DNA of 64,000 nt from Candidatus Aenigmatarchaeota archaeon (GCA_043824495.1 JBDRSV010000015.1:1-64000); one strand, 5' to 3'; positions 29,682 through 52,178 are shown, counted from the first letter of the stretch. Numbers and translations: made by a program. Notes: a model not told the origin generated them from the letters alone.

Positions 29682-32600
29682 ATGAGAACGGGTACTAGTA
29701 AAATTCTGATAATTTTGTTTTTCGCATTGGCATTAACCTTATTTACTAGTTATGTTCTTGCAGGAAATTTTGAGAGTAGTTCTTCACCGTCTACAGTTGA
29801 ATCTGGTGCAACAGAAGTTCTTCTAAACTTCACTATTAACAACAATGCTACTGGATTTAATTTAACAAATGTTACTTTACAACTACCTTCTAATTTCACA
29901 TTTATCACAGATACAAACTCTACAACAGGAATAAGCACACACTTTACTAACACATCATCTAACATTACTTGGGGTAACATCTCTACTTGGATAATCGGTA
30001 ATGGAACAGGTAGCCCAAGTTCGGAATTCTTTGTATTCAATGTTAGCGTATCATCAGGTGCTCAGACAGAAGATGTTCTTGTATTTACAGTTCATGAAGA
30101 CATGACAAGTAACTCAACAACAGTTCAAGTAGTAGTTAATGATAGTACACGACCATCTAGCATAGACTATATGACACCAACACCGGCAGCAAGTTCTTTC
30201 CAGAGTTCAAATACCGTTTCAGTTAATGTAACATTTGTTGATATCAATCCAGGAAGTTGTATTTTCGAATTCAGTAATGGAACAGCAGTAAATTACACAA
30301 ACAGCATACCTCTTTCTTATGCATGTTCATTTAATTTCGGAGCTCAGCCAAGCGTTCCAATCAATGTAACAGTTTTCGTAAATGACAGCTCAGGGAATAT
30401 AAATAGTTCTGCCTTCTTAAATTTCACAATTGATGCAACTCAACCTTCAGCAATTGATTTCTTAGCACCAACTCCAACTGAAAGTGTATTCAGTACAGAT
30501 ACAACTCCATCAGTAAATGTAACTTTCACAGAAACCAATTTCGCAAACTGTACAATTGTTTGGTACAACACAACAGGTGCAGCAGCAGGACAAAATCTAA
30601 CAAACACAGCAAGCAATACTAGTTCATGTTCACTTACTATACCAACTCAAGCATCAGGAGAGGTAAACACAACAGTATTTGTATACGATGCAGCAGGAAA
30701 TGCAAACACAACAGTAAACAGAAATTGGACAATTGATGCAACTCAACCATCAGCAATTGACTTCTCAACACTAACACCAGCAGCCGGCGCATTTGACACT
30801 GACACAACACCAATTGTAAATGTAACTTTCACAGAGACAAATGTTGTAAGCTGTGTGATGACATGGTACAATGTAGCAACACCTGCAGGTTCAAACACCA
30901 CCAACACAACAATAGTTGGTAATTCATGTATGTTTAATAATATCAGTGCGCAATCAGAAGGAGAAGTAAATGTGACTGTTTTCGTAAATGACGCTGCTGG
31001 TAATTCAAATTTAACAACAAACAGAAACTGGACAGTTGACTCCACAGGTCCTTCAGCAATTTCATTCTCAGTACCAACTGATGGTTCATTCCAATTAACA
31101 AGTGCTGTAACATTATATGGTGCATTCGCAGAAACAAATGCAGAAAGATGTATATTCGAAGTATCTAACACAACAAGTAACAATATAAACTATACAAACT
31201 CAACACCTGGATCCTCTACATGTACAATTACACTTACATTTGCATCAGGAAATGTTAATGCAACTCTTTATGTAAATGATAGTGCTGCTGTTCTCAATAG
31301 TTCTACTCTTCTTAATTTCACAGTAGATGCAACACTTCCATCTGCAATTGATTTCTTAGCACCAACACCAGCTGAGGGAGCATTTAGCACAGATACAACA
31401 CCATCAGTGAATGTAACTTTCACAGAAACCAATTTCGCAAACTGTACAATTACATGGTACAACACAACAGGAGCTGCAGGTGGTCAAAACTTCACAAACA
31501 CAGCAAGTAATACTAGTGCATGTTCACTTACTTTACCAACACAATCAAGCGGAGAAGTTAATACAACAGTATTTGTTTATGATGCAGCAGGAAATGCAAA
31601 TGCAACTGAGAATAGAAACTGGACAGTTGACTCTGCGGGTCCTTCAGCAGTTGACTTCTCAACACTAACACCAGCTGAGGGAGCATTCGATACTGACACA
31701 ACACCAATTGTGAATGTAACTTTCACAGAAACTAATGCAATAAATTGTACAATGGTGTTATATAACACGACAACCGCAGCAGGCGCAAACGTCACAAACT
31801 CAACATTACTTGGCAATTCATGTATGTTTAATAATATCGGTGCACAACCACAAGGGGAATTGAATGTAACAGTGTTTGTTTATGATGCTGTAGGTAATGT
31901 AAATACAACAGTAAACAGAAACTGGACAATTGATTCAACACTTCCAACAGCAGCGGACTTCGTATCACCAACACCAGCTGAGGGAGCATTCAGTACTAGC
32001 GCAAATCCAATAGTCACTGTGGTGTTCACAGAAATAAACCCAGTGAATTGTACAATTACATGGTACAACACAACAGGTGCAGCAGCAGGACAGAACTTTA
32101 CAAACACGTCAGAAGGTACTAATTCATGTTCATTTAATGCAACAACTCAATCAAGCGGAGAAGTTAATGTAACAATATTCACTCACGATGCCGCAGGTAA
32201 TGTTAACGCAACAGTAAACAGAAACTGGACAGTTGATACAGTATTACCTGCAGCAATTGACTTTGTATCACCAATGTCAGCAGCTAACGCTAATGTGACA
32301 GTTCCTTATGTATACGTAAACGCAACATTCACTGAAACCTTTGCAAACTCATGTACAGTTCAAATTGCAAATGCTTCTGTTACAAACTTTACGGGAACAA
32401 TATCAGGAAACTATTGTTTCTTCAATGCTTCACAATCAACTGATGGTCCTTGGAACTTCACAGTATATTTAGTAGATGCAGCTGGAAATACAAATTCTAC
32501 AATAACAAGAACAGTTAATCTGAACTTGAACTCACCAGAAGTTGTTATAAACTCACCTTCTTCAAACAATTCATGGTATAATGCAAGCTTTGTGTTAAAC

Positions 32601-33896
32601 ACAACAGCAGCAAATCTAGTGTGGATTACGCAGTACAGATATGAAAATGTGTCTGTAAATTCAAGTTGGGTAGCAATGACAGATTCTAATATATCCAATG
32701 AATACTGGAATGCAACATTCAACATATCAACAGTAGTTGAAGGTAATTACACATTCAGAATAAATGCAACAGATTCTGATTTCAATTCAAATACAACTGA
32801 GACCATGGTAATATGGATTGACACAACAAACCCAACAATATCAGCATTCTCATTATCATCTGCAACACCTACGGTTGGTGCTACAGTTACAGGAACATGC
32901 ACAGCTACAGACAACTTAGACACATCTGTAACAACTGTAATAACTGGTATAGATACCACATCAACAGGATCTAAGACGGCAACATGTACAGCTGTGGACA
33001 ATGTAGGAAACGTGGTCACATCTACAGCTAGTTACACTGTGTCAGCTGCGGCAGGTGGTGGCGGAGGCGGCGGAGCAGCCGGAGGTAATGCATACGATAA
33101 CAAGAGTAAGAAGCATGATTTAATACCAGGTAAGGGTTTGCAAGGTAACACCAAATTACAAACAGCACTAGAAAAAGTTCTTGGTAAAGGAAAGATGAAT
33201 GAAAACGCCATACAAAACTTGATGAGATTATCAGAATCCATAGTTCAAGAAGTTGATGCTAACAGAGTAATGAGTAGAGAGACAGGTAAAACAAGATTTG
33301 ATCTAACATTGAAATACAAAGGACAGAAGAAAATTAAGAACTTGGTAGTCTGGGACAAGTTACCAAAGGCATTTGCAGCACATACAGACAATATTAGTGT
33401 GAATGTAACTGGAGCAACAATAGAAATTGTTGAAACAGATCCAGAATACTTATTCGTGTTTGATGAAGTCGCACCACAACAAGAGATTGTCATTTCTTAT
33501 GAAGTGGCAAGATTAGCTGCAGCAACTACAGTAGACGATGCAGAAGTAGAGATATATGCAGAAGGGTTAGAAGAAGTCGGTGATGTGTGTGGTAACGGTG
33601 TTTGTGAAACAGGCGAGAACTCTGATAATTGTTTAGTTGATTGTCCTCTTATAGCAGATACGTGTAATGCAGGTGAAAAGAGATGCTCGGGAAATAGCAT
33701 ACAAGAATGTATAGAAGATGGGACAGATTGGAGAACAATTGACACATGCCAACATGGATGTGCAAATAATGTTTGTGTTGAAAGACCAGCTGCGGATGTA
33801 GTTGATTACATGCTATTATATGCGGGTGTTTTGGTAGTAATCATAATCATCATTATAATTGTCTTAGTTGTCCTGCATCAGAAGAGAAAATTCTAA
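29682..33896 (+). CDS. Large repeat-containing cell-surface glycoprotein
   Basis: Signal peptide; about 8 tandem ~100-aa Ig-like repeats ('D.T.PSA.DF..PTP...NRNWT'); Gly linker; Cys-rich repeats; C-terminal TM. Confidence 0.88.
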   Translation: MRTGTSKILIILFFALALTLFTSYVLAGNFESSSSPSTVESGATEVLLNFTINNNATGFNLTNVTLQLPSNFTFITDTNSTTGISTHFTNTSSNITWGNISTWIIGNGTGSPSSEFFVFNVSVSSGAQTEDVLVFTVHEDMTSNSTTVQVVVNDSTRPSSIDYMTPTPAASSFQSSNTVSVNVTFVDINPGSCIFEFSNGTAVNYTNSIPLSYACSFNFGAQPSVPINVTVFVNDSSGNINSSAFLNFTIDATQPSAIDFLAPTPTESVFSTDTTPSVNVTFTETNFANCTIVWYNTTGAAAGQNLTNTASNTSSCSLTIPTQASGEVNTTVFVYDAAGNANTTVNRNWTIDATQPSAIDFSTLTPAAGAFDTDTTPIVNVTFTETNVVSCVMTWYNVATPAGSNTTNTTIVGNSCMFNNISAQSEGEVNVTVFVNDAAGNSNLTTNRNWTVDSTGPSAISFSVPTDGSFQLTSAVTLYGAFAETNAERCIFEVSNTTSNNINYTNSTPGSSTCTITLTFASGNVNATLYVNDSAAVLNSSTLLNFTVDATLPSAIDFLAPTPAEGAFSTDTTPSVNVTFTETNFANCTITWYNTTGAAGGQNFTNTASNTSACSLTLPTQSSGEVNTTVFVYDAAGNANATENRNWTVDSAGPSAVDFSTLTPAEGAFDTDTTPIVNVTFTETNAINCTMVLYNTTTAAGANVTNSTLLGNSCMFNNIGAQPQGELNVTVFVYDAVGNVNTTVNRNWTIDSTLPTAADFVSPTPAEGAFSTSANPIVTVVFTEINPVNCTITWYNTTGAAAGQNFTNTSEGTNSCSFNATTQSSGEVNVTIFTHDAAGNVNATVNRNWTVDTVLPAAIDFVSPMSAANANVTVPYVYVNATFTETFANSCTVQIANASVTNFTGTISGNYCFFNASQSTDGPWNFTVYLVDAAGNTNSTITRTVNLNLNSPEVVINSPSSNNSWYNASFVLNTTAANLVWITQYRYENVSVNSSWVAMTDSNISNEYWNATFNISTVVEGNYTFRINATDSDFNSNTTETMVIWIDTTNPTISAFSLSSATPTVGATVTGTCTATDNLDTSVTTVITGIDTTSTGSKTATCTAVDNVGNVVTSTASYTVSAAAGGGGGGGAAGGNAYDNKSKKHDLIPGKGLQGNTKLQTALEKVLGKGKMNENAIQNLMRLSESIVQEVDANRVMSRETGKTRFDLTLKYKGQKKIKNLVVWDKLPKAFAAHTDNISVNVTGATIEIVETDPEYLFVFDEVAPQQEIVISYEVARLAAATTVDDAEVEIYAEGLEEVGDVCGNGVCETGENSDNCLVDCPLIADTCNAGEKRCSGNSIQECIEDGTDWRTIDTCQHGCANNVCVERPAADVVDYMLLYAGVLVVIIIIIIIVLVVLHQKRKF
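30140..32520 (+). repeat. Intragenic tandem repeats (~300 bp) with an 894-bp higher-order period
   Basis: GCAATTGATTTCTTAGCACCAAC at 30450 and 31344; GCA(A/G)TTGACTTCTCAACACTAACACCAGC at 30753 and 31647. Confidence 0.85.
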
Positions 33897-34413: not shown

Positions 34414-35409
34414 TTGTTAATAGTGATAACCATTAACAAGAAGCTAACATCTGATGATTCAAAGAGAATTAAAAGACTTTATTTATCAGGAGAATCAATA
34501 TTTACTATATCTGAGAGTCTCCATGTAAATCCGTCAACAATTTGCGATCATTTAGAAAAGAGTGGAATTAAGAGACGTTCTGCTAGAGAAGCTGGAATTC
34601 TAGCTTCCAAAAGAGGCAGATTGAAAAAACATGAGATACCCAAGTCTTCAAGAAAAATGACAGAAGAAAAAGCATATATTTTAGGTGTTATAGTTGGAGA
34701 CGGTTGGTTACATAAAACAAAAAATGATTCTTATCAAATAGGACTGCAGGCAATTGATATGGATTTTGTCTATGAATTTATACGATGTTTTGAGAAGGTT
34801 TATGAATTAAAACCAAAGGTAACGTTGATTGAAGAGAAAACACCAAATTGGAATGATAAGTTACAAGCTCGAATTTGTAGCAAAAATATATTTAATGACA
34901 TCATGAGTTATGGGAATGTGGGAAAGTATGAGTGGACTGTACCTAAAATTGTCTTCAATTCACCAGAAAACATTAAATGTGCTTTTCTTAAAGGATTTTT
35001 TGACTCTGAAGGGTGTGTAGACAAAAGTAAGAAAATTATTACCAATTCTGTGAGTCTTGGTCTTTATGATATAAAAAGTCTATTAGTTTCTATGGACATC
35101 AGATCCAATATTATAAAGATTACTAAAGTGAAAGGAAATCGCAAAATGCGTTACGATCTCAATATTACAGGAAGAAGTTATATTGAATTGTACGCCCAGA
35201 GAATCGGATTTTCTATAAAAAGAAAAGAGAGAAAATTAGAAATTTTACTTAATAATTATAAATTGAGAACAACTCCGCATCAAGATGTCATTAAACTTAA
35301 AGACGATATACTAGAAATGAGGAATAAAGGATTCTCTTATCAAAAAATAGCAGACAGATTGAATATAGGAATAACTACAGCATGGAATTATGTAAATAAA
35401 TCCAGTTAA
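34414..35409 (+). CDS. Free-standing double-motif LAGLIDADG endonuclease-like protein with N- and C-terminal HTH
   Basis: 'AYILGVIVGDG' and 'AFLKGFFDSEG'; HTH-like helices at both ends; start uncertain (TTG 34414 or GTG 34423). Confidence 0.88.
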   Translation: MLIVITINKKLTSDDSKRIKRLYLSGESIFTISESLHVNPSTICDHLEKSGIKRRSAREAGILASKRGRLKKHEIPKSSRKMTEEKAYILGVIVGDGWLHKTKNDSYQIGLQAIDMDFVYEFIRCFEKVYELKPKVTLIEEKTPNWNDKLQARICSKNIFNDIMSYGNVGKYEWTVPKIVFNSPENIKCAFLKGFFDSEGCVDKSKKIITNSVSLGLYDIKSLLVSMDIRSNIIKITKVKGNRKMRYDLNITGRSYIELYAQRIGFSIKRKERKLEILLNNYKLRTTPHQDVIKLKDDILEMRNKGFSYQKIADRLNIGITTAWNYVNKSS

Positions 35410-36704
35410 GGGACTAGTCTTTCTGGAGTACGTGGAAATAATATGGCTTCCTTTATATTCTCTAAATGTAACATTTGCTGTACCATACGTTCAATACCGA
35501 AGCCACATCCTCCATGGGTAGCAACTCCATATCTAAAGGCATCTACATAGAATTTGAAATCCTTTGGGTCTAATCCTTTCTGTTTCATTACTTTCATGAG
35601 TTCTTCAGATCTGTGCTCTCTCTGTCCACCCGAAGCCATTTCCATGCTTCTGTATATACAATCATAACTATGGCTCTCTTTGCCGTCCATCATAACGTAG
35701 AAAGGTTTGAGTTTAGAAGGGAATCTTGTGACAAAATACCATTCATGTCCTTGTTTAGTCATGTATTCTCCTATCACCTTCTCTTCCGGGTCCATCATAT
35801 CTTCTCCCCACTCAAATTTAACATTCTGCTTCTCAAGTATCTTAATCCCATCAGTATAAGTGATCCTCTTGAAAGGTGTGTTCGGAACAGTCAAGTCCTT
35901 AATGCTCAATATATCTAATTCTTGTTTACAATTCTTCAAAACCCCTTTGATTATATGAACAACCATATTTTCTACAGTCTTCAATACATCTTCCATAGAA
36001 TCTATCCATGCTTGCTCAAAATCAAGAGATAAGAACTCAGAAACATGCCTTCTTGTGTGGAACTTCTCAGCTCTGAACGCTGGACCTATCTCATACACAC
36101 GATCTAAGCCAGAAGCCATTAAGATTTGCTTGTAAAGTTGTGGTGACTGTCTCAAGAATGCCTTGTTTTTGTAATAATCAACACTAAATAGGGTAGCTCC
36201 ACCCTCTGCTCCTGCTGCTTGTATAACTGGAGTGTGAGTCTCTATGAATCCATCACTTTCCAAGAAGTTCCTTGCAGCTGTCAAAGCTGCATCTTTGATC
36301 TTGAAAACAGCTTGTATTTTAGGGTTTCGTATGTCTATGAACCTATAATCAAATCGTGTATCCTTACCAGATTCTATCTTATCTGTTGTTTCTAATGGTA
36401 AAGGAGTTTCTGCTTTATTCACAATTTCTATACTATCCGGAATAATTTCTTTTCCTCCAGGTGCTGCTGGAGCTTGTTTTACCTTACCCTTAACTATGAC
36501 ACAGTCTTCTCTATGTAATTCATCTACTAAAGAGAATAACTTTTCAGAAACATCCGTCTTCTTAGCTGTTATTTGTATGAAGCCTGTTCTATCTTTTAGC
36601 TTGAAAAACTTAAGTCCACCTAGACTTCTTACCTTGTCGACCCATCCCTTCACGATTACTTCTTGGCCAACATCCGCATCCCGAGAAAACACCCTCTGAC
36701 TCAT
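35406..36704 (-). CDS. aspS: Aspartyl-tRNA synthetase, archaeal type
   Basis: OB-fold, AEGGATLF, LRQSPQLYKQ, FRAE, GFGIER, FPRTPERL. Confidence 0.96.
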   Translation of the reverse strand: MSQRVFSRDADVGQEVIVKGWVDKVRSLGGLKFFKLKDRTGFIQITAKKTDVSEKLFSLVDELHREDCVIVKGKVKQAPAAPGGKEIIPDSIEIVNKAETPLPLETTDKIESGKDTRFDYRFIDIRNPKIQAVFKIKDAALTAARNFLESDGFIETHTPVIQAAGAEGGATLFSVDYYKNKAFLRQSPQLYKQILMASGLDRVYEIGPAFRAEKFHTRRHVSEFLSLDFEQAWIDSMEDVLKTVENMVVHIIKGVLKNCKQELDILSIKDLTVPNTPFKRITYTDGIKILEKQNVKFEWGEDMMDPEEKVIGEYMTKQGHEWYFVTRFPSKLKPFYVMMDGKESHSYDCIYRSMEMASGGQREHRSEELMKVMKQKGLDPKDFKFYVDAFRYGVATHGGCGFGIERMVQQMLHLENIKEAILFPRTPERLVP

Positions 36705-41769: not shown

Positions 41770-42189
41770 TTATTCTGATTCTTCGTCACTCCGGAACAAA
41801 TTACCTGCATATTCAAGACCATGTCCTGCAATGCAGATTCCTGCAGGAAGTAATATGCCTGTAAAGAAGTCGCCGTCAGTTGCACTAGATAAAAAGGGAG
41901 CCGCAATAGGTGCAAGTCTAGCAATTCTGCCTGTGTGCTCAAGAAAATTTGGATCGTCTCCAACTTCTCTGTATTGTCTCACAGTGTTGAGAACCTCACC
42001 AGCGCCATATATGGCAAACATGTCATCTATAGAAGCTGTTAAATCTCTTCCTATATCACCTATTACTTCATATAAAACATGATCTCTAACACCATGATAC
42101 CACTCAATAGCACTAACAGTTACTCCTAGTGCTCCCCCCACTCTAACTAAGTTTCCAGTATTTTCCCATAATTTTTTACCAAAAGACAT
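41770..42189 (-). CDS. Hypothetical Gly/Ala-rich, probably membrane-associated protein
   Basis: 139-aa ORF with hydrophobic stretches. Confidence 0.55.
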   Translation of the reverse strand: MSFGKKLWENTGNLVRVGGALGVTVSAIEWYHGVRDHVLYEVIGDIGRDLTASIDDMFAIYGAGEVLNTVRQYREVGDDPNFLEHTGRIARLAPIAAPFLSSATDGDFFTGILLPAGICIAGHGLEYAGNLFRSDEESE

Positions 42190-42371
42190 AAGATCACATA
42201 AGAAGACTGTACTGACTGTTTATATAGTTTATCCATGTTTATTCTTCTAAACTTAAAAGATGATGATCTCCGGCCTGAGATCAAAACAGCGTGCATGAAA
42301 CCCTATAAAAAGGAGAAATTAAATATAAACAAGTCTTTTTAAACAGCAAACCAATTCTAAATGGGTTGTGC

Positions 42372-45300
42372 ATGAAAAAGAGAATAAAAATGAGTTTTTT
42401 AAATAACTCTTTATTCGTACTTGTTGCACTAACAGTCACGATCCTACTAATTACACAGCATAGCCTAGCTCTCTCTTACCAGAAAGTAAACATAGGAGAT
42501 AATAAAATCCAAATACAGAATAATCTAGGAGCTCCAGTACTTGATATTCAATTAATAGAAAATACAGATCAATGTATCGTGAATTGCCATGCAACACTGA
42601 AAATACATCCGTACCAGACTTATAACATTCCAGACTACTCTTCTCCAAGCGAGAAATGGGATTTTGTAAAGGCCGATTCGAATGTCATGGGTTTGAAGTC
42701 CTACACATTACAATTATTGAAAAATATTACTTATAACATCACAGTTCCGACAATCTCCAATACAAGTTACAGTTGCTTTAATAACATAACGCAACAAAAC
42801 GAAACCTGCCAGATTCTGGAACAGATAGGAGTACAAACAGAGACACGGACAAGAGAAGAATGGGTACCATTTAACTGGTTCGGGGAAACCCTTGAGCAAG
42901 GCAGGGACTACTACATAAAACTAAGTGCACAGAAATCTCCATCTTTAGGCGAAAACAACATAGACTGGGTTCCTACAATAAAAGGCGTGACCCTAGACGA
43001 CTGGGCCTGGTGGAATTCTAGCTGGTTTAACAGGAGGAATATAACCATATCAGAAAACAACATATCTACAAGAACAGCTGAACCAGTAACGCTGAATGTA
43101 ACAGGATTGACAATAAATACAACATGCGAAAATGAGATACGAATAACAAACGAAACAGACGATGAAATTCCTGTCCAGATAGTTAATTCAACTGGAGAAT
43201 CAGAACCAGCAGGACGTCAATGGTGTGAAATTATTTTTGAGGCCACAGTAGATAAAAATAAATCTGTTGATTATTTTGTTTACTATAATAACCCTTCAGC
43301 TGCGCTTTCAACACTAACGTACATATCATTTAATTTCACTGAAAACAGATTCACAGGAAGAGATTATGAAGTAATTCTAAGTAAACCAACAAACAGCCTA
43401 CAAGTTCTAAGGGATAAAAACAATATAAACTGGAGTAGTAACAACAATACAATATATCTTGTGGGTGAGAGTACAGTTCAATATGCTGCAGGAGATTCTA
43501 TAACAGACGGTAATGCTACGTGGACAGACTGTGGTAATGTAAGGTGCATGATAAACTGGACAAAACTGAGTACAGAGGGAGAATATACACTTTACTCACA
43601 AAAGATAGTCACAAACATCACTTCCAACATAACCTTCATGTATGGCCCATACACATCAAGTACGTCCAGCCATCCACTAGGAAACGACGATTACGTCTGC
43701 TCCTCGGTAATAGACTGTGTTCAGTATGTTGGCTCACCTCCTCGACATACATATGTTTCTGACTGGAAGTCATGGTTTTGGAAAGACAATACAGATATAA
43801 AATACGTGGTTGCCTGTGATACTGGTCCCCATCTAACTAGAATATCCTCCAATCCCGCAGAATTTACTGTCATTCGAGGTGGCTGGACAACGGATTATCA
43901 CCTAAGTCCAGGATCATACAGAATGATCCACGAATTTATTAATGGAACCCCGCAGAACGCAGAAGACAAGATTGGCGAACTGGAAGCAATGTTTGCCAAT
44001 CCTCTATCTGTCCAATTAGGCCCAGAACAAACAGGCAACGGAACCCTGTTCATCACGGATCTTATTCCAATCCAGGTAGTGGAAGACGTGGATATGGTGA
44101 AAGGGAAGACAACCATGATAAGATCAACAATCAGTTTCTATCACCCAAATCCTAACCTGACGGCCAATATAACGGTAAAAACACACTGGAACGGCAGCCT
44201 GGTTAATACAACAAACATAACACTTACCGACGGTCAATCAAAAAATATAAACCACTGGTACACTCCAGGTCAGTCAGGCACAGACATAGAGGTGAAATCA
44301 ACAGCAGAAACTACAATATCATACACTTTCATCAATGACACAAGAACAACCAGCGTTGATGTTGTGGAGACGAGGAAGTTTACAGTTGATTTCATTCCAG
44401 TTGATGATCCCGAATATTTTGATTTCACAGTTGACGAATCTATACTTTTCATGAATAAAACATATCCTTTAGCAGATGATGCCATTAAAAATTTAACAGT
44501 GAAATCAAACCCTGTTAATACGTCTGACATGGACAAAACAGATCCCTTGTTATTCAAGACAGAACTGTTATTAAAAGTTCGCATGAATAGTCTATTAACA
44601 GGAAATTATACAGAAAGGACTGTTGGTATTCTTCCACAATCTTGGTTTTCCGACAATTTAGATGACACAAAAACTCTAGGCTATGCTATTATTCAAAACT
44701 TTCCTCCTATATTTGGCTATCCACCCTTCAAAATAACATTTAATTCGGTTGTTATTGAAGATGCACTTAGATCAGGAGCTGCACACGAGCTCGGTCATAC
44801 ATTTGGTTTATGCGATGAATATAACTCTTCATTATGGGAAGAACAGGATTCGCTTTTTGGATTATTTAATAATTATTGTCCTAATGGTGATGTGGATGAC
44901 GACAACTCTTTGGACGATAGATGCTTGGCGGTAATTCCAGGATGTAATGACACAACTTTAGGCGAATTGATACCTTGGAATTCTAATACTGACACAATAA
45001 GCGTTTATAACTTTATGGGAAGCCTCAATTTTCAAGAATCTAGGTGGATAACAAAAGAAAGTTATAACCATCTATTAAGCTACTTCTCACACTCGACTCC
45101 AGAGACCGCATCATCACGACTTCTTGTAAGCGGTTTCTACAATAAAATTGACGGATCCGTAGACTTCAGAAATTTTTACCAGTTGGGGGAGGGACTAATA
45201 GAAAATGAGAGTGAATTTGCAACTGGCAATTTCTCCATAGAATCCTTGGACGCAAATGCTACAGCTTTATTTAACATAAGTTTCAACCTGTCCTTTATAC

Positions 45301-46016
45301 TAAGCTCAGCCAATGGCACTGTTGAAAATATAAACGTTACTCCATTCGCTTTTGTTGTCCCGTTTTCGGATAATGTGAGCAGCCTGACATTCAAAGAAAA
45401 CGCTACAATAAAAGAAGAAAGGGACAGGACACAAAACACACCTAATGTGACACTAATCGAGCCTACTGGAGGAGAATTCTATTCAAATGTAGAAATAAAC
45501 ATTTCTTGGACTTCTTCTGACGCTGACGGTGATAACATGAGCTATGCTATTTTATTCAGTCCAGACAATGGAACCTCTTGGGACACTATAACTTTTGATC
45601 ACAACGAAACAAACTACACTATAAATTCTGGTGACCTACAAGACTGCACAGAATGCCTCATTAAAATACTAGCAACTGACGGAATGAATACAGGAAATGA
45701 TACAAGCGATTCCGTATTTCAAATAGACAATGATTTGAGCATTACCGAGTTTTCTCTCGTATACTCAAACAACACAGAGCGTGTTTTCAGAATATCTGTA
45801 AACAATACTCTTGACCTTGACATTACAAACATTTCTTGGATTTTAGATACAGGAGACGAGGCTATTAATTCTCAATACTTGACTAACTTAGAGGTGGGAG
45901 AAGACATTTTCATTTTCGTGCATTATAATTATACAGTTATTGGAAATTATACAGTCATTTTCACAGCTTACACAAACGAGCACATAGAAAAGGAGGAGAT
46001 CGAGGTTATAATTTAA
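42372..46016 (+). CDS. Large secreted zinc metalloprotease-like protein (DUF2341-like region, HExxH, Ig-like C-terminus)
   Basis: Signal peptide; 'WWNSSWFNRRNITI'; 'AAHELGHTFGLCDEY' at 44784. Confidence 0.85.
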   Translation: MKKRIKMSFLNNSLFVLVALTVTILLITQHSLALSYQKVNIGDNKIQIQNNLGAPVLDIQLIENTDQCIVNCHATLKIHPYQTYNIPDYSSPSEKWDFVKADSNVMGLKSYTLQLLKNITYNITVPTISNTSYSCFNNITQQNETCQILEQIGVQTETRTREEWVPFNWFGETLEQGRDYYIKLSAQKSPSLGENNIDWVPTIKGVTLDDWAWWNSSWFNRRNITISENNISTRTAEPVTLNVTGLTINTTCENEIRITNETDDEIPVQIVNSTGESEPAGRQWCEIIFEATVDKNKSVDYFVYYNNPSAALSTLTYISFNFTENRFTGRDYEVILSKPTNSLQVLRDKNNINWSSNNNTIYLVGESTVQYAAGDSITDGNATWTDCGNVRCMINWTKLSTEGEYTLYSQKIVTNITSNITFMYGPYTSSTSSHPLGNDDYVCSSVIDCVQYVGSPPRHTYVSDWKSWFWKDNTDIKYVVACDTGPHLTRISSNPAEFTVIRGGWTTDYHLSPGSYRMIHEFINGTPQNAEDKIGELEAMFANPLSVQLGPEQTGNGTLFITDLIPIQVVEDVDMVKGKTTMIRSTISFYHPNPNLTANITVKTHWNGSLVNTTNITLTDGQSKNINHWYTPGQSGTDIEVKSTAETTISYTFINDTRTTSVDVVETRKFTVDFIPVDDPEYFDFTVDESILFMNKTYPLADDAIKNLTVKSNPVNTSDMDKTDPLLFKTELLLKVRMNSLLTGNYTERTVGILPQSWFSDNLDDTKTLGYAIIQNFPPIFGYPPFKITFNSVVIEDALRSGAAHELGHTFGLCDEYNSSLWEEQDSLFGLFNNYCPNGDVDDDNSLDDRCLAVIPGCNDTTLGELIPWNSNTDTISVYNFMGSLNFQESRWITKESYNHLLSYFSHSTPETASSRLLVSGFYNKIDGSVDFRNFYQLGEGLIENESEFATGNFSIESLDANATALFNISFNLSFILSSANGTVENINVTPFAFVVPFSDNVSSLTFKENATIKEERDRTQNTPNVTLIEPTGGEFYSNVEINISWTSSDADGDNMSYAILFSPDNGTSWDTITFDHNETNYTINSGDLQDCTECLIKILATDGMNTGNDTSDSVFQIDNDLSITEFSLVYSNNTERVFRISVNNTLDLDITNISWILDTGDEAINSQYLTNLEVGEDIFIFVHYNYTVIGNYTVIFTAYTNEHIEKEEIEVII

Positions 46017-46033
46017 GGTAAAGGTGATATGAC

Positions 46034-46405
46034 ATGAAAAATTTATTAGTTGTTATAGGGATATTGGCAATTGTTGTCACGTCCGGTTGCACAACAATCC
46101 CACCAGAGTGCCCTGATATGGGCTATAGTGAGTATGGAAAAACAGGAATAAGCATCTCTACTAACATACAAGCCCTGAATGTTATGAAGGAGTATATGAA
46201 TTCCACAAATATAGCATTCTATGGGAGCATTAAAAATCATGTTCCGGAGGACATGAAATATAAAGAGATAAGAACAGTATATGGAATTTACGATGACGGC
46301 GGCCTGGTTGACTCACTAGAAACTGAAATCTATGCGTGGGTATTGAACAATAAGTTTGCAATAGATCAAAATGGAACCGTGCATGAACATGTAGGTTGTG
46401 CTTAA
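46034..46405 (+). CDS. Small lipoprotein-like partner, copy 1
   Basis: Lipobox-like 'VTSGC'; paralogous to 48359 and 49151. Confidence 0.7.
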   Translation: MKNLLVVIGILAIVVTSGCTTIPPECPDMGYSEYGKTGISISTNIQALNVMKEYMNSTNIAFYGSIKNHVPEDMKYKEIRTVYGIYDDGGLVDSLETEIYAWVLNNKFAIDQNGTVHEHVGCA

Positions 46406-46445
46406 CTGATAAAATTAGAACTGTAGTTGGTAAAGAAGGTGTAAA

Positions 46446-48359
46446 ATGGAAAAATCAAAAGTCCAAGTAGTGGAAAACGTGGACATGGTTAAAGGAAAAA
46501 CCACTCTCATTAGAGTTATTGTTTCCTTTGTTGCAAATGACACAAACGCAACTATCATACCCAATGTAACCATCCACTGGAATGATACACTGATTAGATA
46601 TAACGACACTCAAAACATGTCACATGGAGAAGAATTATCATTTGATTTCTGGCACATACCACAGGATGTAGGAGACGTTGAAGTAATGGCAGAAGTTGAA
46701 GGGACGTATGAAGGGGAATATCTGAGTGATAGTAGAGATCATAATGTTGATGTTGTGGAGACACACAAATTGAATATAGGTTTCGTACCAGTGGACTGGG
46801 AGCCTCAACTAAATTTTAATGCTTATAAGAAAGATGTTTTACAATTTATGAATAGTACATATCCATTATCAGACGATGGTTTTAATATAACTGACCATGC
46901 TGAAATTGCCACTGCACCAGTGGTTGGTGTGCCATTTGTTCCTGCTCTTCTTTTGCAAATTAGAGGAGCAACACAACTGTCCTCTAATGAATACCCAGAC
47001 AGATCTGTCGGTATTGTTCCCCCAAGCTGGTTTTTCCAACATGGTCTTGGGAACTCAAAAGGGTTTGCAATTTCTTCAAGATTGTTGCAATATGCATTTC
47101 CTGCAGTTGTATTAGAAGCAGGACGTCAGGAATTACTTGCACATGAAATTGGTCATACATATTTCTTGTGTGACGAAAATGTATCAGAGTGGAATGACCA
47201 GAATACAGAAACATTATCTGATAATCTTTGCCCGAACGGTGATTCAAATCCAGACGATGAAATTTTGGATTTGGAATGTCAAACAAATAAAGGTTGTCCA
47301 ACAGAAACAATAAAGGAGCTGATTCCTTGGCCAGGTTCAAACGGCTCAGAAATGAAAAATTTCATGGGTTATCATGAAAACCAGTTTACAAAATGGGTCT
47401 CAAGCAATACATATAATCATCTTATTAATATGCTAAAGAACTCAACACCTGATTTTTCTACTTCAAGAATTTTAGTAAGCGGATTCTACAATAAAAGTTC
47501 AGAAAAAGCTGATTTCCAGAATTTCTACATTTTAGGGGATGGTTTTGTTGAAAACAAAAGCCAAATATCTGGAAATTTCTCAATAGAAATGCTTGATAAT
47601 CAAAGTAATATGATTTATAATATAACCTTCCCTCTCGCTTTCTTCATTACTTTATATAATGGAAGTAGTATAGAGACCAATGTAACACCATTTATTTTTG
47701 CACTACCGTTGGAATCCAATATTTCTCAAATAAATTTTGTGGAAAACGATACTATAAAAGATCAGGTTAATAAATCTTTTAATCCACCATCTATCAACAT
47801 CACTTTCCCAAATGGTGGTGAATTATTCAATAACCAAGAAATAAACATATCTTGGGAAGCAAACGATTCTGATGGTGATAATTTGACTTTTTCGGTTTTG
47901 ATAAGTAATGATGGTATTAATTATAATACAATTGCCTATGATACAAACCAAACATTCTTTATATACAATTCAACAAGCTTAGCAGATGGCAAGGAGTATC
48001 TAGTAAAGGTATTAGTATCAGATGGCTTTAATACAAACAATGATACAAGTGATAATGTATTCGAAATAGACAATGACTTAAACATAACAGAACTTTCTGT
48101 TATATATGAAAACAGTACAGAAAGGATGTTCAGATTTGTCATAAACAATACTCTAGGTTCTAATATAAGTAATATTTCATTTAGTTTAGATACTGGAGAA
48201 ATCACAGAATATTCACAGTATAGTATAACTCTCCGAGGAGGAGAGGACATATTTGTTTATGTTTATTACAACTATACTGTTACTGGTATTTATACTGTTA
48301 TAGCTACTGCCAGAAGCGGCGAATTTGTTGAAGTTGAAAGTATGAATATTGGAGTTTAA
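46446..48359 (+). CDS. N-terminally truncated paralogue of the metalloprotease (no signal peptide)
   Basis: Begins at the shared 'VQVVE(N/D)VDMVKGKTT'; 'LAHEIGHTYFLCDE' at 47142; same C-terminal domain. Confidence 0.8.
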   Translation: MEKSKVQVVENVDMVKGKTTLIRVIVSFVANDTNATIIPNVTIHWNDTLIRYNDTQNMSHGEELSFDFWHIPQDVGDVEVMAEVEGTYEGEYLSDSRDHNVDVVETHKLNIGFVPVDWEPQLNFNAYKKDVLQFMNSTYPLSDDGFNITDHAEIATAPVVGVPFVPALLLQIRGATQLSSNEYPDRSVGIVPPSWFFQHGLGNSKGFAISSRLLQYAFPAVVLEAGRQELLAHEIGHTYFLCDENVSEWNDQNTETLSDNLCPNGDSNPDDEILDLECQTNKGCPTETIKELIPWPGSNGSEMKNFMGYHENQFTKWVSSNTYNHLINMLKNSTPDFSTSRILVSGFYNKSSEKADFQNFYILGDGFVENKSQISGNFSIEMLDNQSNMIYNITFPLAFFITLYNGSSIETNVTPFIFALPLESNISQINFVENDTIKDQVNKSFNPPSINITFPNGGELFNNQEINISWEANDSDGDNLTFSVLISNDGINYNTIAYDTNQTFFIYNSTSLADGKEYLVKVLVSDGFNTNNDTSDNVFEIDNDLNITELSVIYENSTERMFRFVINNTLGSNISNISFSLDTGEITEYSQYSITLRGGEDIFVYVYYNYTVTGIYTVIATARSGEFVEVESMNIGV

Positions 48360-48724
48360 TGAGAGGAGGCGAGAAGATGGAAAAGTATGCTAAAATTGCT
48401 ATAATAATAGTTGCTGCTTTAGTATTAATCATAAGCGCTATCTTTTATGGCAATTTTCCTAAATGTGCTGGAGACCTTCGTTTTACTGAAATTGTAGATT
48501 TAAACAGATCTATAAACAATTCAGAAGAAGCGTACAATGCTTTTAATGAGTTCTATAAAACACATAAAGGAAGATATGCACATGAATACGGTTTACAAAA
48601 AGAAGACATAGAGTTTAAAGAAATAACAGTTGAAAATGGTTCTCAGGTCTCTGCTTGGGTACTAATAACAGATGAAGCCGTGGATAATTTAGGAAAAATA
48701 TATGTACAAGAATATTGTGCTTAA
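48359..48724 (+). CDS. Small membrane-anchored partner, copy 2
   Basis: N-terminal TM; 'EDIEFKEI..AWV...AVD..G....CA'. Confidence 0.7.
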   Translation: MRGGEKMEKYAKIAIIIVAALVLIISAIFYGNFPKCAGDLRFTEIVDLNRSINNSEEAYNAFNEFYKTHKGRYAHEYGLQKEDIEFKEITVENGSQVSAWVLITDEAVDNLGKIYVQEYCA

Positions 48725-49134
48725 ATATGAAAATTTTAACAATTAATAGCTTGGAAGGAGAAGGCAAATCTTATATGGGTAGAATATTAGCAACAGACGG
48801 GATGAATACAGGCAATGATACGAGCAATACTATATTTGAAATAGACAACGATTTGAATATAACAGAATTCTCTGATGTATATTCAAATAACACAGAACGT
48901 GTTTTTAGGGTATTTGTGAACAATACACTCGATATCAACATTACAAACATTTCCTGGTCTTTGGACACAGGAGAGGACATGAAAAGTTCAGAATATCTAG
49001 GTAATCTAAAACCAAGTGAACAGGTCTTCATTTACGTGTATAATAATTATACATTAACGGGTAACTATACAGTAATTATGTCCGTGTATACGGACGAATA
49101 TTTAGAAAAGGATGAAATTGAGATTATAGTTTAA
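48715..49134 (+). pseudogene. Orphan C-terminal fragment of the metalloprotease family
   Basis: 'ILATDGMNTGNDTS..FEIDNDL.ITEFS' closely matches the C-terminus of 42372-46016; the N-terminal ~20 aa are unrelated. Confidence 0.7.
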
Positions 49135-49150
49135 AGAGAGGCAGTGTAAG

Positions 49151-49531
49151 ATGGAGAACATAAAATTTGGAAGTTTAGTAATGATTGTTATTGGAATAGT
49201 AATAGTAGCGGGTATTTATGTAAGCCAATATATACCGCTCCCTAAAGAACCTGAAATACCCGGATTAATACTACCTGGTGACTGCAATTATTTTGGTATA
49301 ATACACGAAACAGAGATAAACAAAACACTAAAAACAAGAGAAGATGCCTTAGAAGCGTTAGAATTTGTATATAGAAAGTTTAATACTACCTCTAATTTAA
49401 CTGCTGATGATCTGGAATTTAAAAACATCATAGTAGAAGGCAAAGAAATCAGTGGATGGAGAATAATACCCTTAGATCCAGCGTTTATAGATAAGGATGG
49501 TAATGCTTGGGGAAACTACACATGTTTATAA
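49151..49531 (+). CDS. Small membrane-anchored partner, copy 3
   Basis: N-terminal TM; 'DDLEFKNI..GW....FIDKDG....CL'. Confidence 0.7.
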   Translation: MENIKFGSLVMIVIGIVIVAGIYVSQYIPLPKEPEIPGLILPGDCNYFGIIHETEINKTLKTREDALEALEFVYRKFNTTSNLTADDLEFKNIIVEGKEISGWRIIPLDPAFIDKDGNAWGNYTCL

Positions 49532-49532
49532 A

Positions 49533-49959
49533 TATGAAATCATCAACAAAAACCACAATCGGAATCATTGGAATTTTGTTACTTTTGTTTAGTCTGCAGG
49601 TTATTGCGGACCCGATAGACTTGGGTAGAGAAGAAATCAAGGATTATTATTGGATGACTGTTTGTGGAGATAATCAGGAAATAAACCTAGATACAGAAAG
49701 TGCAGAAGAATATTGTTTGGCAGAAGAGGATGGAGTTCCAACAAACTGCACTAAAATTCAAGAGATTTATGTAGAATCTTTAGAGACAAATCAGTCTCGT
49801 CCAGAATGCATAAATGAAATTACAGGAGATGATGGAAACACTTCTATAGAGTATGATGTTGACTGCATAATGGAAACATGTAGTGAGTTAATAGAATTCA
49901 ATCAATTGACAGGAGAGACTAGATCAGTATGGACAAAAAAATATGGTTGGTCATTATAG
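49533..49959 (+). CDS. Small acidic Cys-containing secreted protein
   Basis: Signal peptide from MKSSTK; 6 Cys. Confidence 0.6.
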
Positions 49960-51335
49960 TAATTATCAGCCTAATGGTAGTTGCAAGCATACAAGAATCA
50001 ACATCAACAGGAGAATCATCAGGCATGATTCTATTCTGGGACGGAATTGAAGCTACAGTGCCATCAGAATGGAGTGTTGTGAGCAAAGACATATGCCCAA
50101 TGGGCCAGGGATGGTGTAATGACTTCTACAACAGGACCATAAACATATCATCAGCATACGGAACTGAAGGCGGTTCGGATACATATACAGGAACAGTTTC
50201 ACATGTTATATCACAACCTAGTGTTACAAGAAAAATAGATCCCGGAACACCTAACGGGTTTAATGTGGCTTCTGCAACTCATACAGGAACGCTGACATCT
50301 GAAATACCTGCAAATACAAGTATACCTCCTGTAAGGAACCTTATCATAATAAGGTATGACAATGGAATGCCAGACATGATACCAGCAGGTGCTATAGCGT
50401 TCTTCAATGATACCATACCTCCAGAAAACTGGACGCTGTATACAGAAGGTGATGGTTATTTCTTAAGAGGATCTGATGCTCCAAACACAACTCTGGGATC
50501 ATTAACACATACTCACATAAATGCCAATTTCACTCTTATCGGCGGTGGAGCAGCTGTAGGTACAAGTACAGGAACTACAGTCCCTACACCATCACATTCT
50601 CATGGAACCATAGGAGATCAGAATCTAAGCGAAGAGAATCATATACCTCCTTATGTTGACATGCCCATGATAAAAGCCACTGAAGATACTCCTATTCCAA
50701 TCGGCATGATAGCTGTGTTTAACTCAACTCCTCCAAGTTATTCTTGGGATAATTTAAGCGAGGATCCAAACTTCAACAATCATCTAATAAGAATAAACTC
50801 TTCTTCTTTCAACACAACAGGAGGATCAGCATATCACCAACACGAAGAGATTAACATAACGTTTGGACAAACCTCGGATACCACAAGCAAGAAATATACA
50901 AAACTTGGAGGATTTCACATTACAGTGGCAGGAAGAACTCATGGTCATACTGTAAATATAAGCGTGTCCTCACTTAATCAACCGGCATATGTAACTGCTA
51001 TTTTAGGAATATATACAGGCATCATAATAGCCAACGAGTCAGAAGGAAGAGATGCAATAGAAGAAGGCATAAATAATACTATACCTAATTCCACTAGATA
51101 TGAGGATCAGCAGATATATATAATAAACGAGACGGGTGATCACTCTACTGGATTGTTTGACATAGTTACTATAGAAGGAAACCAGACATGGGCATTCAAT
51201 TATGTTACAGGAAACGAATCGTTCACGAATGTGAATCCTATACTTACTATTGTTAACATATGGGAATCAGCATCCCTTGCTTATAGCCAAATAGTTAGCC
51301 AGGTAGAAGATCTTATAAATGAGACGAAAGAGTAG
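49929..51335 (+). CDS. Secreted protein with three phage tail-collar/fibre-like modules
   Basis: G(M/A)I..(W/F)...P..W repeats, HxH motifs, PP(Y/V) module ends. Confidence 0.7.
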   Translation: MDKKIWLVIIVIISLMVVASIQESTSTGESSGMILFWDGIEATVPSEWSVVSKDICPMGQGWCNDFYNRTINISSAYGTEGGSDTYTGTVSHVISQPSVTRKIDPGTPNGFNVASATHTGTLTSEIPANTSIPPVRNLIIIRYDNGMPDMIPAGAIAFFNDTIPPENWTLYTEGDGYFLRGSDAPNTTLGSLTHTHINANFTLIGGGAAVGTSTGTTVPTPSHSHGTIGDQNLSEENHIPPYVDMPMIKATEDTPIPIGMIAVFNSTPPSYSWDNLSEDPNFNNHLIRINSSSFNTTGGSAYHQHEEINITFGQTSDTTSKKYTKLGGFHITVAGRTHGHTVNISVSSLNQPAYVTAILGIYTGIIIANESEGRDAIEEGINNTIPNSTRYEDQQIYIINETGDHSTGLFDIVTIEGNQTWAFNYVTGNESFTNVNPILTIVNIWESASLAYSQIVSQVEDLINETKE

Positions 51336-51413
51336 ATATCCTTTTCCTCGTGTATATCCAGTTTAAGTGTGACCAAACATCACATCCTCAGAAATCAACA
51401 CAATGTGGCATGT

Positions 51414-52178
51414 TTATTCTTCTAAGAAATAGAATAAAGCCTCTTGTACTGTTGCTATCTCTTTCACTGCAAGTCCAGCTTCTTCAGCAACATTTACTCT
51501 ATATGGAACTGTTTCTGTGGTGCAAATCTCTCTTTCACCAATCTTTCTGCATGTTTCTTGTGATCTCTGCTTAATCTCAGTGGATTGTTGTAGTGGGACT
51601 AAAAACAAAATAATACCGTGTTCTTTAGCTACTTTAGCCTTTGCTGTTACTTCACCAATAGGACCAATTGAACCATCACTTCTGATAGTTCCAGTCATCA
51701 TCACGCTTGTGTTTGGAGTTTTATTTGTCAAAGCAGCTACTGTGGCTACAGTTAAAGCAGCTCCAGCTGAACCACCCTCAATAACAGAAGCATCTGCTTC
51801 TATTGTGTATATCATATCATAATTGGATAGATCAGAACCTGTGACCCCACCTGCTATTTGTCTAGAAGTTCTGATAGATGTCTGAGTGTCAACCCAGAAT
51901 AGAATATTATCTATATTTACTAATGGCCTTCCAAAACCAGGAACAATATCCACATTAATTGTGCTTAGTACACCTTCTTTATTTGAATTAACTGCAGGAA
52001 CATACATTGTTACAGATGTGTTAGAACCAGTATCATTTGTTGCTATGAAACTCTCAATTGGAGTATCAAAATCAAGAGTGCCTCCTCTAGGACCGAACAA
52101 TACATCTGATAGATAAAAAGTTCCTATAAAGTAAATGGCGACAAATGATAGTATAGCTACCACACTTATTACTCTCAT
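51414..52178 (-). CDS. Membrane-anchored Lon-like (S16) serine protease domain
   Basis: 'GGSAGAALT', 'MTGTI..DG.IGPIG...KA' Ser-Lys dyad. Confidence 0.9.
   Translation of the reverse strand: MRVISVVAILSFVAIYFIGTFYLSDVLFGPRGGTLDFDTPIESFIATNDTGSNTSVTMYVPAVNSNKEGVLSTINVDIVPGFGRPLVNIDNILFWVDTQTSIRTSRQIAGGVTGSDLSNYDMIYTIEADASVIEGGSAGAALTVATVAALTNKTPNTSVMMTGTIRSDGSIGPIGEVTAKAKVAKEHGIILFLVPLQQSTEIKQRSQETCRKIGEREICTTETVPYRVNVAEEAGLAVKEIATVQEALFYFLEE

Follow-up and report, generated by a model that had tools for sequence, protein, structure and literature searches.

The 64,000-nucleotide stretch of DNA analyzed here in full (the window; GCA_043824495.1, JBDRSV010000015.1:1-64000, from a Candidatus Aenigmatarchaeota archaeon) encodes, at positions 42372-49531, six co-directional, tightly packed genes that form three units, each consisting of a gene derived from a secreted protease and a gene for a small membrane protein. 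The proteases are predicted metzincins, their three copies (hereafter U1, U2 and U3) are nested, and the array lies within an inserted island. The truncated copies lack export signals, and yet they are ancient genes that have stayed intact under the selection typical of extracellular glycoproteins; because of this combination, we read them as a reservoir of cassettes that could be swapped, along with their cognate partners, into the expressed gene, an interpretation that seems quite possible if not quite probable.

Organization of the array

The open reading frame (ORF) map and the translations yield three pairs of a protease-family gene and a mutually homologous partner of about 120 amino acids, as laid out in the initial annotation of this region (Table 1). 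The protease-derived genes are nested, i.e., U1 encodes 1216 amino acids including a signal peptide, in agreement with the annotated full secreted protein of about 1200 amino acids; U2 encodes 637 amino acids without a signal peptide; and U3 is a C-terminal fragment of 117 amino acids. These are all the copies of the protease in the 1.01-Mb genome. In U1, for which the domain plan is taken from the model of its paralog U2, the signal peptide is followed by an N-terminal region of about 560 amino acids, a CARDB-like anchor domain from residue 569, the catalytic domain with the motif HELGHTFGLCDEY, a beta-sandwich, an FN3-like domain and a PKD-like domain. U2 starts 5 amino acids before the anchor motif and aligns end to end with residues 569-1216 of U1 (43% identity, E-value 8e-163); the HEIGH motif, the Asp/Glu following the cysteine and the NFMG Met-turn are all intact. 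Because a stop codon in the sequence closes the frame 5 codons upstream of the ATG (the open frame is 641 amino acids long), a signal peptide is impossible for U2, which bears out the earlier assignment. The homology of U3 is limited to its residues 23-139, beginning at 48781 (68% identity to residues 1100-1216 of U1 and 54% to U2), which matches the conserved C-terminal stretch of about 115 residues described previously; the start could possibly be the ATG at 48775, which is preceded by a Shine-Dalgarno (SD)-like motif. The first ATG of partner 2 is overlapped by the stop codon of U2, and the true start of this gene is likely the ATG at 48377, with GGAGG before it.

An assembly artefact is ruled out given that the copies are merely 43-68% identical. 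Similarly, a fusion of partner 1 with U2 by read-through or frameshift is ruled out by the different frames of the two genes and the stop 5 codons before the U2 ATG.

Fold and conservation of the protease

The model of U2, built from a 46-sequence alignment, has a predicted local distance difference test score (pLDDT) of 89 and consists of five domains (Table 1). In an exhaustive structural comparison, the best matches for residues 102-335 are metzincins, namely atrolysin (1dth, Z 12.9, root-mean-square deviation 3.0, 170 aligned residues), a snake-venom metalloprotease (3k7n, Z 12.6), an archaemetzincin (2x7m, Z 12.4) and CpaA from Acinetobacter (6o38_A, Z 12.3), followed by ADAMTS5, ADAM8 and fragilysin (Z 11-12). 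In this model, the catalytic domain of U2 adopts the metzincin (adamalysin-like) fold. The sequence of U1 (HELGHTFGLCD) is an exact fit to the extended zinc motif of metzincins, HExxHxxGxx(H/D); in U2 (HEIGHTYFLCD), the Gly is absent and the His, Glu, His and Asp are kept. All 46 relatives share His233, Glu234, His237, Cys242 and Gly308; nearly invariant are the acidic pair that follows Cys242 and also Asn305 and Met307, which belong to a Met-turn-like NFMG segment (N305-F-M307-G308) located where the modeled fold ceases to align with adamalysins. Searches of Pfam and NCBIfam yield sub-threshold matches around HExxH, weak matches of immunoglobulin (Ig), FN3 and PKD type in the C-terminal domains and nothing more, including no known trafficking or pre-toxin domain. 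A Foldseek search against the PDB with the whole U2 model retrieves Ig-array look-alikes only.

The protease family comprises 574 representatives at E-values below 1e-30, with very different N-terminal domains, from Woese-, Nano- and Micrarchaeota, Methanosarcinales and some bacteria. By its ribosomal protein L10e, the window genome belongs to an Aenigmatarchaeota-like DPANN archaeon. Among 60 sampled relatives of this genome, no full-length family members are found, only matches to the Ig-like domains, and a single-protein scan of genome contigs for relatives gives no match.

Partner proteins and the predicted complex

The three partners (24-28% identity to each other) each contain an N-terminal transmembrane (TM) helix or lipobox, a cysteine just after it, a conserved tryptophan, a D-x-x-G motif and a penultimate cysteine. 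A profile search identifies at least four members of this family, and its genes lie directly 3' of the protease gene in six further loci (L021, L024, L025, L145, L146 and L201); Pfam and NCBIfam give no match for any of the partners. In the model of partner 2 (pLDDT 84), the TM helix leads into a domain made of a strand, a helix and a sheet of four strands; the partner is predicted to be a disulfide-stapled ectodomain with an N-to-C disulfide-like cysteine pair. The best matches reported by the exhaustive structural aligner are PepSY proteins, YpmB (2gu3, Z 4.9) and YpeB (5boi, Z 4.3), followed by the fungalysin prodomain (4k90_B, Z 4.2) and CD1622 (Z 4.2), all of these being weak scores. A search of the ESM Atlas places the PepSY/FTP cluster on top with a TM-score of only 0.40, a protein atlas search with partner 1 gives no usable lead, and Foldseek finds no match in the PDB. 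Several results speak against this affinity: none of the three partners matches the Pfam PepSY family (PF03413) at E-values up to 0.1, a profile of 7 partners finds no solved PepSY structure by sequence, and fold scores of this size are often exceeded by chance arrangements. Because the scores are weak and there is no hidden Markov model match, the label "PepSY-like", which we use here for convenience, is a weak, model-based lead and not a statement of membership.

One pair, the catalytic domain of U2 and the ectodomain of partner 2, was modeled as a complex along with three controls. The ipSAE score is 0.74 compared to 0.00 for the best of the controls; 58 of 80 solved complexes and 2 of 110 mismatched pairs attain this mark. 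The runs share at least 60% of the contacts, with a partner pLDDT of at least 83. Partner 2 is predicted to lie across the active-site cleft of U2, contacting residues 121-130, 193-194, 225-228 (the loop that leads into the HEIGH helix) and 309-314 (the segment that follows the Met-turn), and its own predicted contacts include the C-terminal residues 116-120, beside the S1' wall. Thus, the model supports, without demonstrating, the binding of partner 2 to U2. Between U1 and U2, the predicted interface residues are 13% identical whereas the rest of the catalytic domain is 40% identical (resampling P of about 0.007), a test that is biased since the interface consists of surface residues; this divergence is a hint of co-diversification of protease and partner. 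The partners themselves diverge fast, with nonsynonymous divergence (dN) of 0.75-0.83.

A homolog of partner 1 on a JGI metagenome contig (L146, 870-1136) contains a stop in frame some 29 codons from its start and could be a pseudogene or reflect a sequencing error. This locus was rejected as a close relative of U1, with merely 67% DNA identity, and is cut by the contig end.

Age and selection of the truncated copies

Synonymous divergence (dS) between U1 and U2 is saturated; between U1 and U3, dN is 0.19 and dS 1.75, a ratio of 0.11. U2 contains 5.3 N-x-S/T sequons per 100 amino acids, with an observed to expected ratio of 3.24 that is the highest in the window, and U1 contains 4.6 per 100. 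The cytoplasmic-type ORFs of the window have 0-1.2 sequons per 100 amino acids, and only signal-bearing surface proteins come near U2. Of the 34 sequons of U2, 20 share an alignment column with sequons of U1. Thus, rather than decaying, the truncated copies have long been kept intact, under purifying selection of the kind that acts on extracellular glycoproteins, and the relaxed selection that the initial annotation had raised as a sign of a decaying duplication is not seen. At 6.2 sequons per 100 amino acids, a 1404-amino-acid signal-bearing surface protein with a Big_13 domain (29682-33896) is the densest in the window.

The 9.2-kb island

The block 42251-51408 is a horizontally acquired island of 9.2 kb. 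It is bounded by a perfect 17-bp direct repeat (Table 1), of which there are two exact copies in the 64 kb where none is expected (100 shuffles), and the two copies enclose exactly the genes from U1 through that of a 468-amino-acid protein. The orthologous site is empty in a genome of the same genus (G001) and in one of the same family (G013), where the genes for a 265-amino-acid protein, the Lon_C-like protein and TatD are contiguous, as is the endonuclease III gene where the G001 contig reaches; the spacing between the Lon_C-like and TatD genes is about 78 bp in G001 and about 55 bp in G013. Therefore, the array arrived as a 9.2-kb insertion. It was probably assembled before the transfer because the divergence of U1 and U2 is far older than the still-perfect repeat. 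The sampled relatives of the window genome lack the protease. Between the left repeat and the TatD gene, there is also a gene for a 139-amino-acid protein without family matches (41770-42189, minus strand), which is absent at the G001 and G013 sites.

Related arrays and signatures of recombination at the anchor

Arrays of a similar kind are present in other DPANN loci. In L004, the array consists of a full gene (1145 amino acids), copies of 701 and 693 amino acids without signal peptides that start about 50 amino acids before the anchor, C-terminal fragments of 177 and 183 amino acids and an anchor fragment of 90 amino acids, interleaved with genes for small membrane or Cys-rich proteins. In this locus, an anchor block of 350-460 nt (about 400) is 86-90% identical among four copies, with third-position identity of 0.77-0.90 that then falls to background. 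In a quick tree, the bodies behind this block belong to different well-supported clades, the full copy with L018 and L019 (SH-aLRT 99) and the 701-amino-acid copy elsewhere (SH-aLRT 100); monophyly of the three L004 bodies, a group named after seeing the tree, is rejected by 384 log-likelihood units (approximately unbiased test, p-AU 4e-62). A homogenized anchor together with polyphyletic bodies requires either that copies have recombined or that foreign bodies have been captured behind an anchor already in place, and it is the signature expected of recombination at the anchor.

Elsewhere, L199 contains the full gene, a TM protein, a 188-amino-acid fragment and another TM protein, and L025, the full gene, a partner and a fragment of 222 amino acids with the same starting point as U3. 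An anchor fragment is retained in L018, and a truncated copy of 384 amino acids is present in L032. Given the recurrence of truncated copies and partners in DPANN loci, and with a cognate-looking partner placed over the cleft in the model, the earlier description of these genes as effector/immunity-like cassettes finds partial support.

Proposed cassette exchange and its alternatives

In the interpretation put forward here, the core module would be a secreted, probably N-glycosylated multidomain metzincin together with the small membrane-anchored PepSY-like ectodomain protein encoded directly downstream. The latter would cap the protease cleft as a cognate inhibitor or chaperone, either by the logic of the CpaA/CpaB pair described below or in the manner of a propeptide acting in trans. 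Nested copying of the 3' protease region and the partner gene would have given rise to the full gene, the 5'-truncated copy and the 3' fragment. The truncated copies would then constitute a cassette reservoir, such that recombination could substitute a cassette, along with its partner, for the catalytic/C-terminal part of the expressed gene, and the extra partners would supply a repertoire of surface inhibitors. The absence of export signals, the selection signals of extracellular type and the L004 mosaic favor a reservoir. A broader version, in which a mobile DPANN cassette system allows an export-competent metzincin to swap its body and matching inhibitor via the anchor domain, stored inhibitors protect against the proteases of neighbors, and the whole, a counterpart of polymorphic toxin-immunity systems employed against hosts or competitors, spreads as a 9-kb island, appears somewhat unlikely.

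Beyond the PepSY results and the biased interface test, a number of observations weigh against cassette exchange in the window. Over 43 nt, the anchor DNA of U1 and U2 agrees at about 84% of the positions, and several of the differences are synonymous ones at third positions; this similarity is no higher than the conserved peptide alone would give; what had been annotated as similarity at the DNA level is thus a protein motif. The clear divergence reported to follow the anchor is not found either: a sliding codon comparison of U1 and U2 reveals no step from conserved to diverged, with amino acid identity of roughly 20-70% throughout, highest near the C-terminus, and third-position identity staying near background. 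The anchor peptide, P[IV]QV[VI]x[DN]VD[LM]VxGKxT[LM][IV]R, is kept in about 20 family representatives, including some with bodies in different clades of the tree, and in the model it corresponds to the first strands of a CARDB/MG-like beta-sandwich (3idu, Z 10.5). The window anchor is a domain start under protein-level constraint, not a substrate for DNA recombination; it offers no usable identity for homologous recombination and is therefore too diverged for swapping active now. The conserved DNA segment that marks the cassette start in polymorphic toxin loci is absent from the window and present only in L004. Nothing in the window genome points to conversion, and no recombinants are seen there. 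The L004 array, the one array recovered from three samples, has the same gene order in all of them, at 99.9% identity and with one single nucleotide polymorphism inside, so that switching in this locus is not frequent, and the alternative cassette orders envisaged earlier do not appear in these samples. Two or more protease copies are present in 2 of 80 metagenomic loci, mostly distant relatives, and U2 is found on one contig only. In the tree, U1 groups with L023 and P0015 (SH-aLRT 95), but a sister clade of U1 and U2 is not rejected (p-AU 0.44), and a plain old in situ duplication also fits. Finally, SD-like motifs precede U2, the possible U3 start at 48775 and four other internal genes of the island (such motifs are present in 11 of 48 window genes, 6 of the 11 in the island, against a background of 10%), and because of these motifs, U2 and U3 may be translated rather than silent.

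Many of the same observations would be expected of a static array of old partial tandem duplicates, each transcribed and translated, where U2 and U3 are separate proteins that use an unknown export route or act as adaptors or decoys, and no swapping occurs. The SD-like motifs and ATG starts before U2 and U3, the tight spacing on one strand, the overlap between the U2 stop and the partner 2 ATG, the tree in which U1 and U2 may be sisters, the window anchor that is not homogenized and the lack of any observed variant are all consistent with this scenario. So are the survival of C-terminal fragments as intact ORFs in four lineages, which fits a stand-alone function, and the L025 fragment fused to the C-terminal domain of a secreted neighbor of about 500 amino acids. 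We consider such an array possible but are inclined to doubt it, given that U2, without a signal peptide, nevertheless keeps the conserved cysteines and a sequon excess otherwise confined to the signal-bearing surface proteins of the window; that the partners are extracellular, hence a cytoplasmic U2 would never meet its predicted partner; and that recombination between copies is required to explain the homogenized anchor and the polyphyletic bodies of L004. Another alternative is surface variation without conflict, with the full gene as the expression site and the truncated copies as silent donors, in the manner of pilE/pilS and vlsE, directed against viruses or host recognition, and the small proteins as folding chaperones. 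The layout expected under this scenario is identical to that of a cassette reservoir, the donors lack the 5' export part, the L004 anchor is homogenized, and some related loci adjoin type IV filament genes (T2SSE, T2SSF and pilins), suggestive of a cell-surface apparatus context. Classical silent cassettes, however, are numerous and have no partner gene of their own, whereas every copy here is accompanied by a fast-evolving partner with a predicted binding site at the catalytic cleft; silence is also at odds with the SD-like motifs, and the three L004 samples contain no variants, so that surface variation alone appears improbable. Least of all do U2 and U3 resemble functionless pseudogene remnants of a tandem duplication. 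Both are indeed 5'-truncated and devoid of export signals, and the partner gene in L146 has an in-frame stop, but a 637-codon ORF remains open in a genome of 35% G+C despite the saturated dS relative to U1, U3 evolves under the low dN/dS given above, the sequons are conserved, intact fragments of this type persist in independent lineages, and the positions invariant across 46 family members are present in U2 as well, although this is so by construction. Decay is accordingly disfavored already and very improbable. Mutagenesis by a diversity-generating retroelement (DGR) was also considered and is ruled out, with no adenine bias in the mismatches among the three 3' copies and the only reverse transcriptase of the genome encoded on another contig.

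Should swapping take place, the logic of polymorphic effector-immunity systems would extend to proteases and to archaea; should it not, signal-less copies that have long been kept with the marks of secreted glycoproteins remain a puzzle.

Relationship to known systems

In Acinetobacter, the adamalysin-like secreted protease CpaA is accompanied by the adjacent membrane-anchored chaperone CpaB (PDB 6o38), and the C-terminal tail of CpaB blocks the catalytic site of CpaA (PMC7542363). The units described here are similar to this pair in the metzincin fold, the partner gene adjoining the protease gene and the N-terminal TM anchor followed by an extracytoplasmic domain, and residues 116-120 of partner 2, in the predicted interface beside the S1' wall, would be comparable to the CpaB tail. 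Unlike the case of CpaB, there is no sequence or fold match to the partner (CpaB is not among the best 50 structural matches), the host is an archaeon without the periplasmic step of type II secretion, and the pair is multiplied into nested truncated copies.

The partners also bear a weak, model-based resemblance to PepSY domains and the propeptides of M4 and M36 proteases (PF03413), which are small helix-plus-antiparallel-sheet domains tied to a secreted zinc protease and thought to be inhibitory. In contrast to these, the protease is a metzincin rather than a thermolysin-type enzyme, the partner is a separate membrane-anchored protein rather than a propeptide, and the similarity to the PepSY family stays at Z under 5 and a TM-score of 0.40, with no PF03413 match. 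Thus, a logic common with CpaA/CpaB and PepSY propeptides appears plausible as an analogy, without demonstrable homology. For a PepSY-like family restricted to DPANN, inhibition of as yet unidentified proteases has been predicted (PMC6393860), and the present array may tie these putative inhibitors to a candidate target class.

Bacterial polymorphic toxin loci, such as those encoding CdiA-CT/CdiI, Rhs and MafB, carry orphan toxin-immunity cassettes (Zhang et al. 2012, PMC3482391). As in these loci, a full secreted gene is followed by 5'-truncated copies without the export part, each with a small fast-evolving partner, in an inserted island; and the bodies of L004, which differ in phylogenetic origin, each follow a conserved DNA block. 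The differences are that the variable parts are all homologous metzincins with 37-48% identity and the same domain order, not unrelated toxin folds; that the window anchor is not conserved at the DNA level; that no known trafficking or pre-toxin domain is matched; that the truncated copies have translation signals; and that some fragments consist only of Ig-like C-terminal domains without a catalytic part. The array is also reminiscent of silent-cassette antigenic variation, exemplified by pilE/pilS of Neisseria and vlsE of Borrelia, in that there is a single expression copy with a signal peptide and promoter-distal partial copies with common conserved flanks. Unlike in those systems, the donors number only two and are each paired with a partner gene, and there is no evidence of conversion in the window genome.

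In the literature searched, no description of protease/partner arrays of this kind in archaea was found. A protease with a cognate inhibitor or chaperone and polymorphic-effector-like cassettes are both of known kinds. DPANN archaea live on other cells, and their attachment, feeding and competition around hosts are largely unknown. A secreted metzincin family would provide these organisms with a concrete extracellular effector, one with dedicated membrane-anchored inhibitor-like partners that moves between DPANN phyla on small islands and would undergo cassette recombination in at least one lineage.

Features of the island and its surroundings

Table 1. Features of the array and the enclosing island (window coordinates; residue ranges refer to the U2 protein)
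Feature	Position	Strand	Description
Left 17-bp direct repeat	42234..42250	+	CATGTTTATTCTTCTAA; duplicates the 3' end of the Lon_C-like gene
U1	42372..46016	+	full-length secreted multidomain metzincin (predicted fold), 1214-1216 aa, motif HELGHTFGLCDEY
Anchor motif in U1	44070..44114	+	IQVVEDVDMVKGKTT, first strand of the CARDB-like domain
Partner 1	46034..46405	+	123-aa lipobox/TM-anchored ectodomain protein, PepSY-like (weak lead); SD-like motif upstream
U2	46446..48359	+	637-aa 5'-truncated paralog, no signal peptide, carries HEIGHTYFLCDEN
U2 anchor domain	residues 1-104		beta-sandwich (model)
U2 catalytic domain	residues 109-330		alpha/beta (model)
U2 third domain	residues 336-442		beta-sandwich (model)
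U2 fourth domain	residues 449-541		FN3-like (model)
U2 fifth domain	residues 545-636		PKD-like (model)
Partner 2	48359..48724	+	TM-anchored PepSY-like (weak lead) ectodomain protein
U3	48715..49134	+	C-terminal fragment: last two FN3 strands and PKD-like domain
Partner 3	49151..49531	+	126-aa TM-anchored member of the partner family
Cys-rich signal-peptide protein	49534..49959	+	about 140-150 aa, inside the island
468-aa protein	49929..51335	+	secreted, sequon-rich; C-terminal ~95 aa is a conserved neighbor domain
Right 17-bp direct repeat	51409..51425	+	overlaps the stop codon of the Lon_C-like gene
Lon_C-like gene	51414-52178	-	

Neither the Cys-rich protein nor the 468-amino-acid protein of the island has a match in Pfam or NCBIfam. 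The C-terminal domain of the latter is the conserved end of a secreted protein of about 500 amino acids that adjoins the protease family in at least 10 other loci (e.g., L004 4634-6274, L018 2552-4081, L019 1081-2592, L020 7041-8558 and L199 4308-5834), often with overlapping stop and start codons of the two genes. This neighbor is probably a third component of the system. In L025 (5093-5761), it is to the C-terminal domain of this protein that the C-terminal fragment of the protease is fused.

Over 21 nt, the start region of U3 (48722-48742) matches that of the gene for the 150-amino-acid protein (49529-49549) at 81% identity, and the 90-amino-acid fragment of L004 (16522-16794) begins with MNFKKFFKPTKGKTT, the start of a small TM protein fused to the anchor. 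Fragments in these arrays seem to borrow their starts from the type of gene that normally follows them.

In many related loci, the small protein encoded beside the protease is not of the PepSY-like type but a multi-TM protein of 90-135 amino acids with the N-terminal motif F-[FIL]-[KR]-P-[TN]-K-x-K (L004 9720-10004 and 16129-16461, L018 7484-7753, L020 11899-12174, L199 9583-9987 and 10583-10867, L022 9544-9915, L028 9607-9936, and L030 10264-10596). A third recurring neighbor is a small Cys-rich protein (L004 12169-12417, L024 12367-12690 and L032 1404-1772). In three related loci, the protease-partner pair is located beside archaeal type IV filament genes encoding a T2SSE ATPase, a T2SSF platform protein and pilin-like proteins (L199 10952-14951, L201 537-4455, and L007 15626-17800 and 21090-21953); in the window genome, type IV filament genes are located elsewhere, the nearest being T2SSF at 5114-5491.

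The only reverse transcriptase of the genome (RVT_1, 90 bits) is encoded on contig C10 (73179-73823), unlinked to the array, and could be part of a DGR or of a group II intron. Within the window, a free-standing ORF similar to LAGLIDADG homing endonucleases (34657-35409) adjoins a gene for a class II aminoacyl-tRNA synthetase (35406-36704, minus strand).

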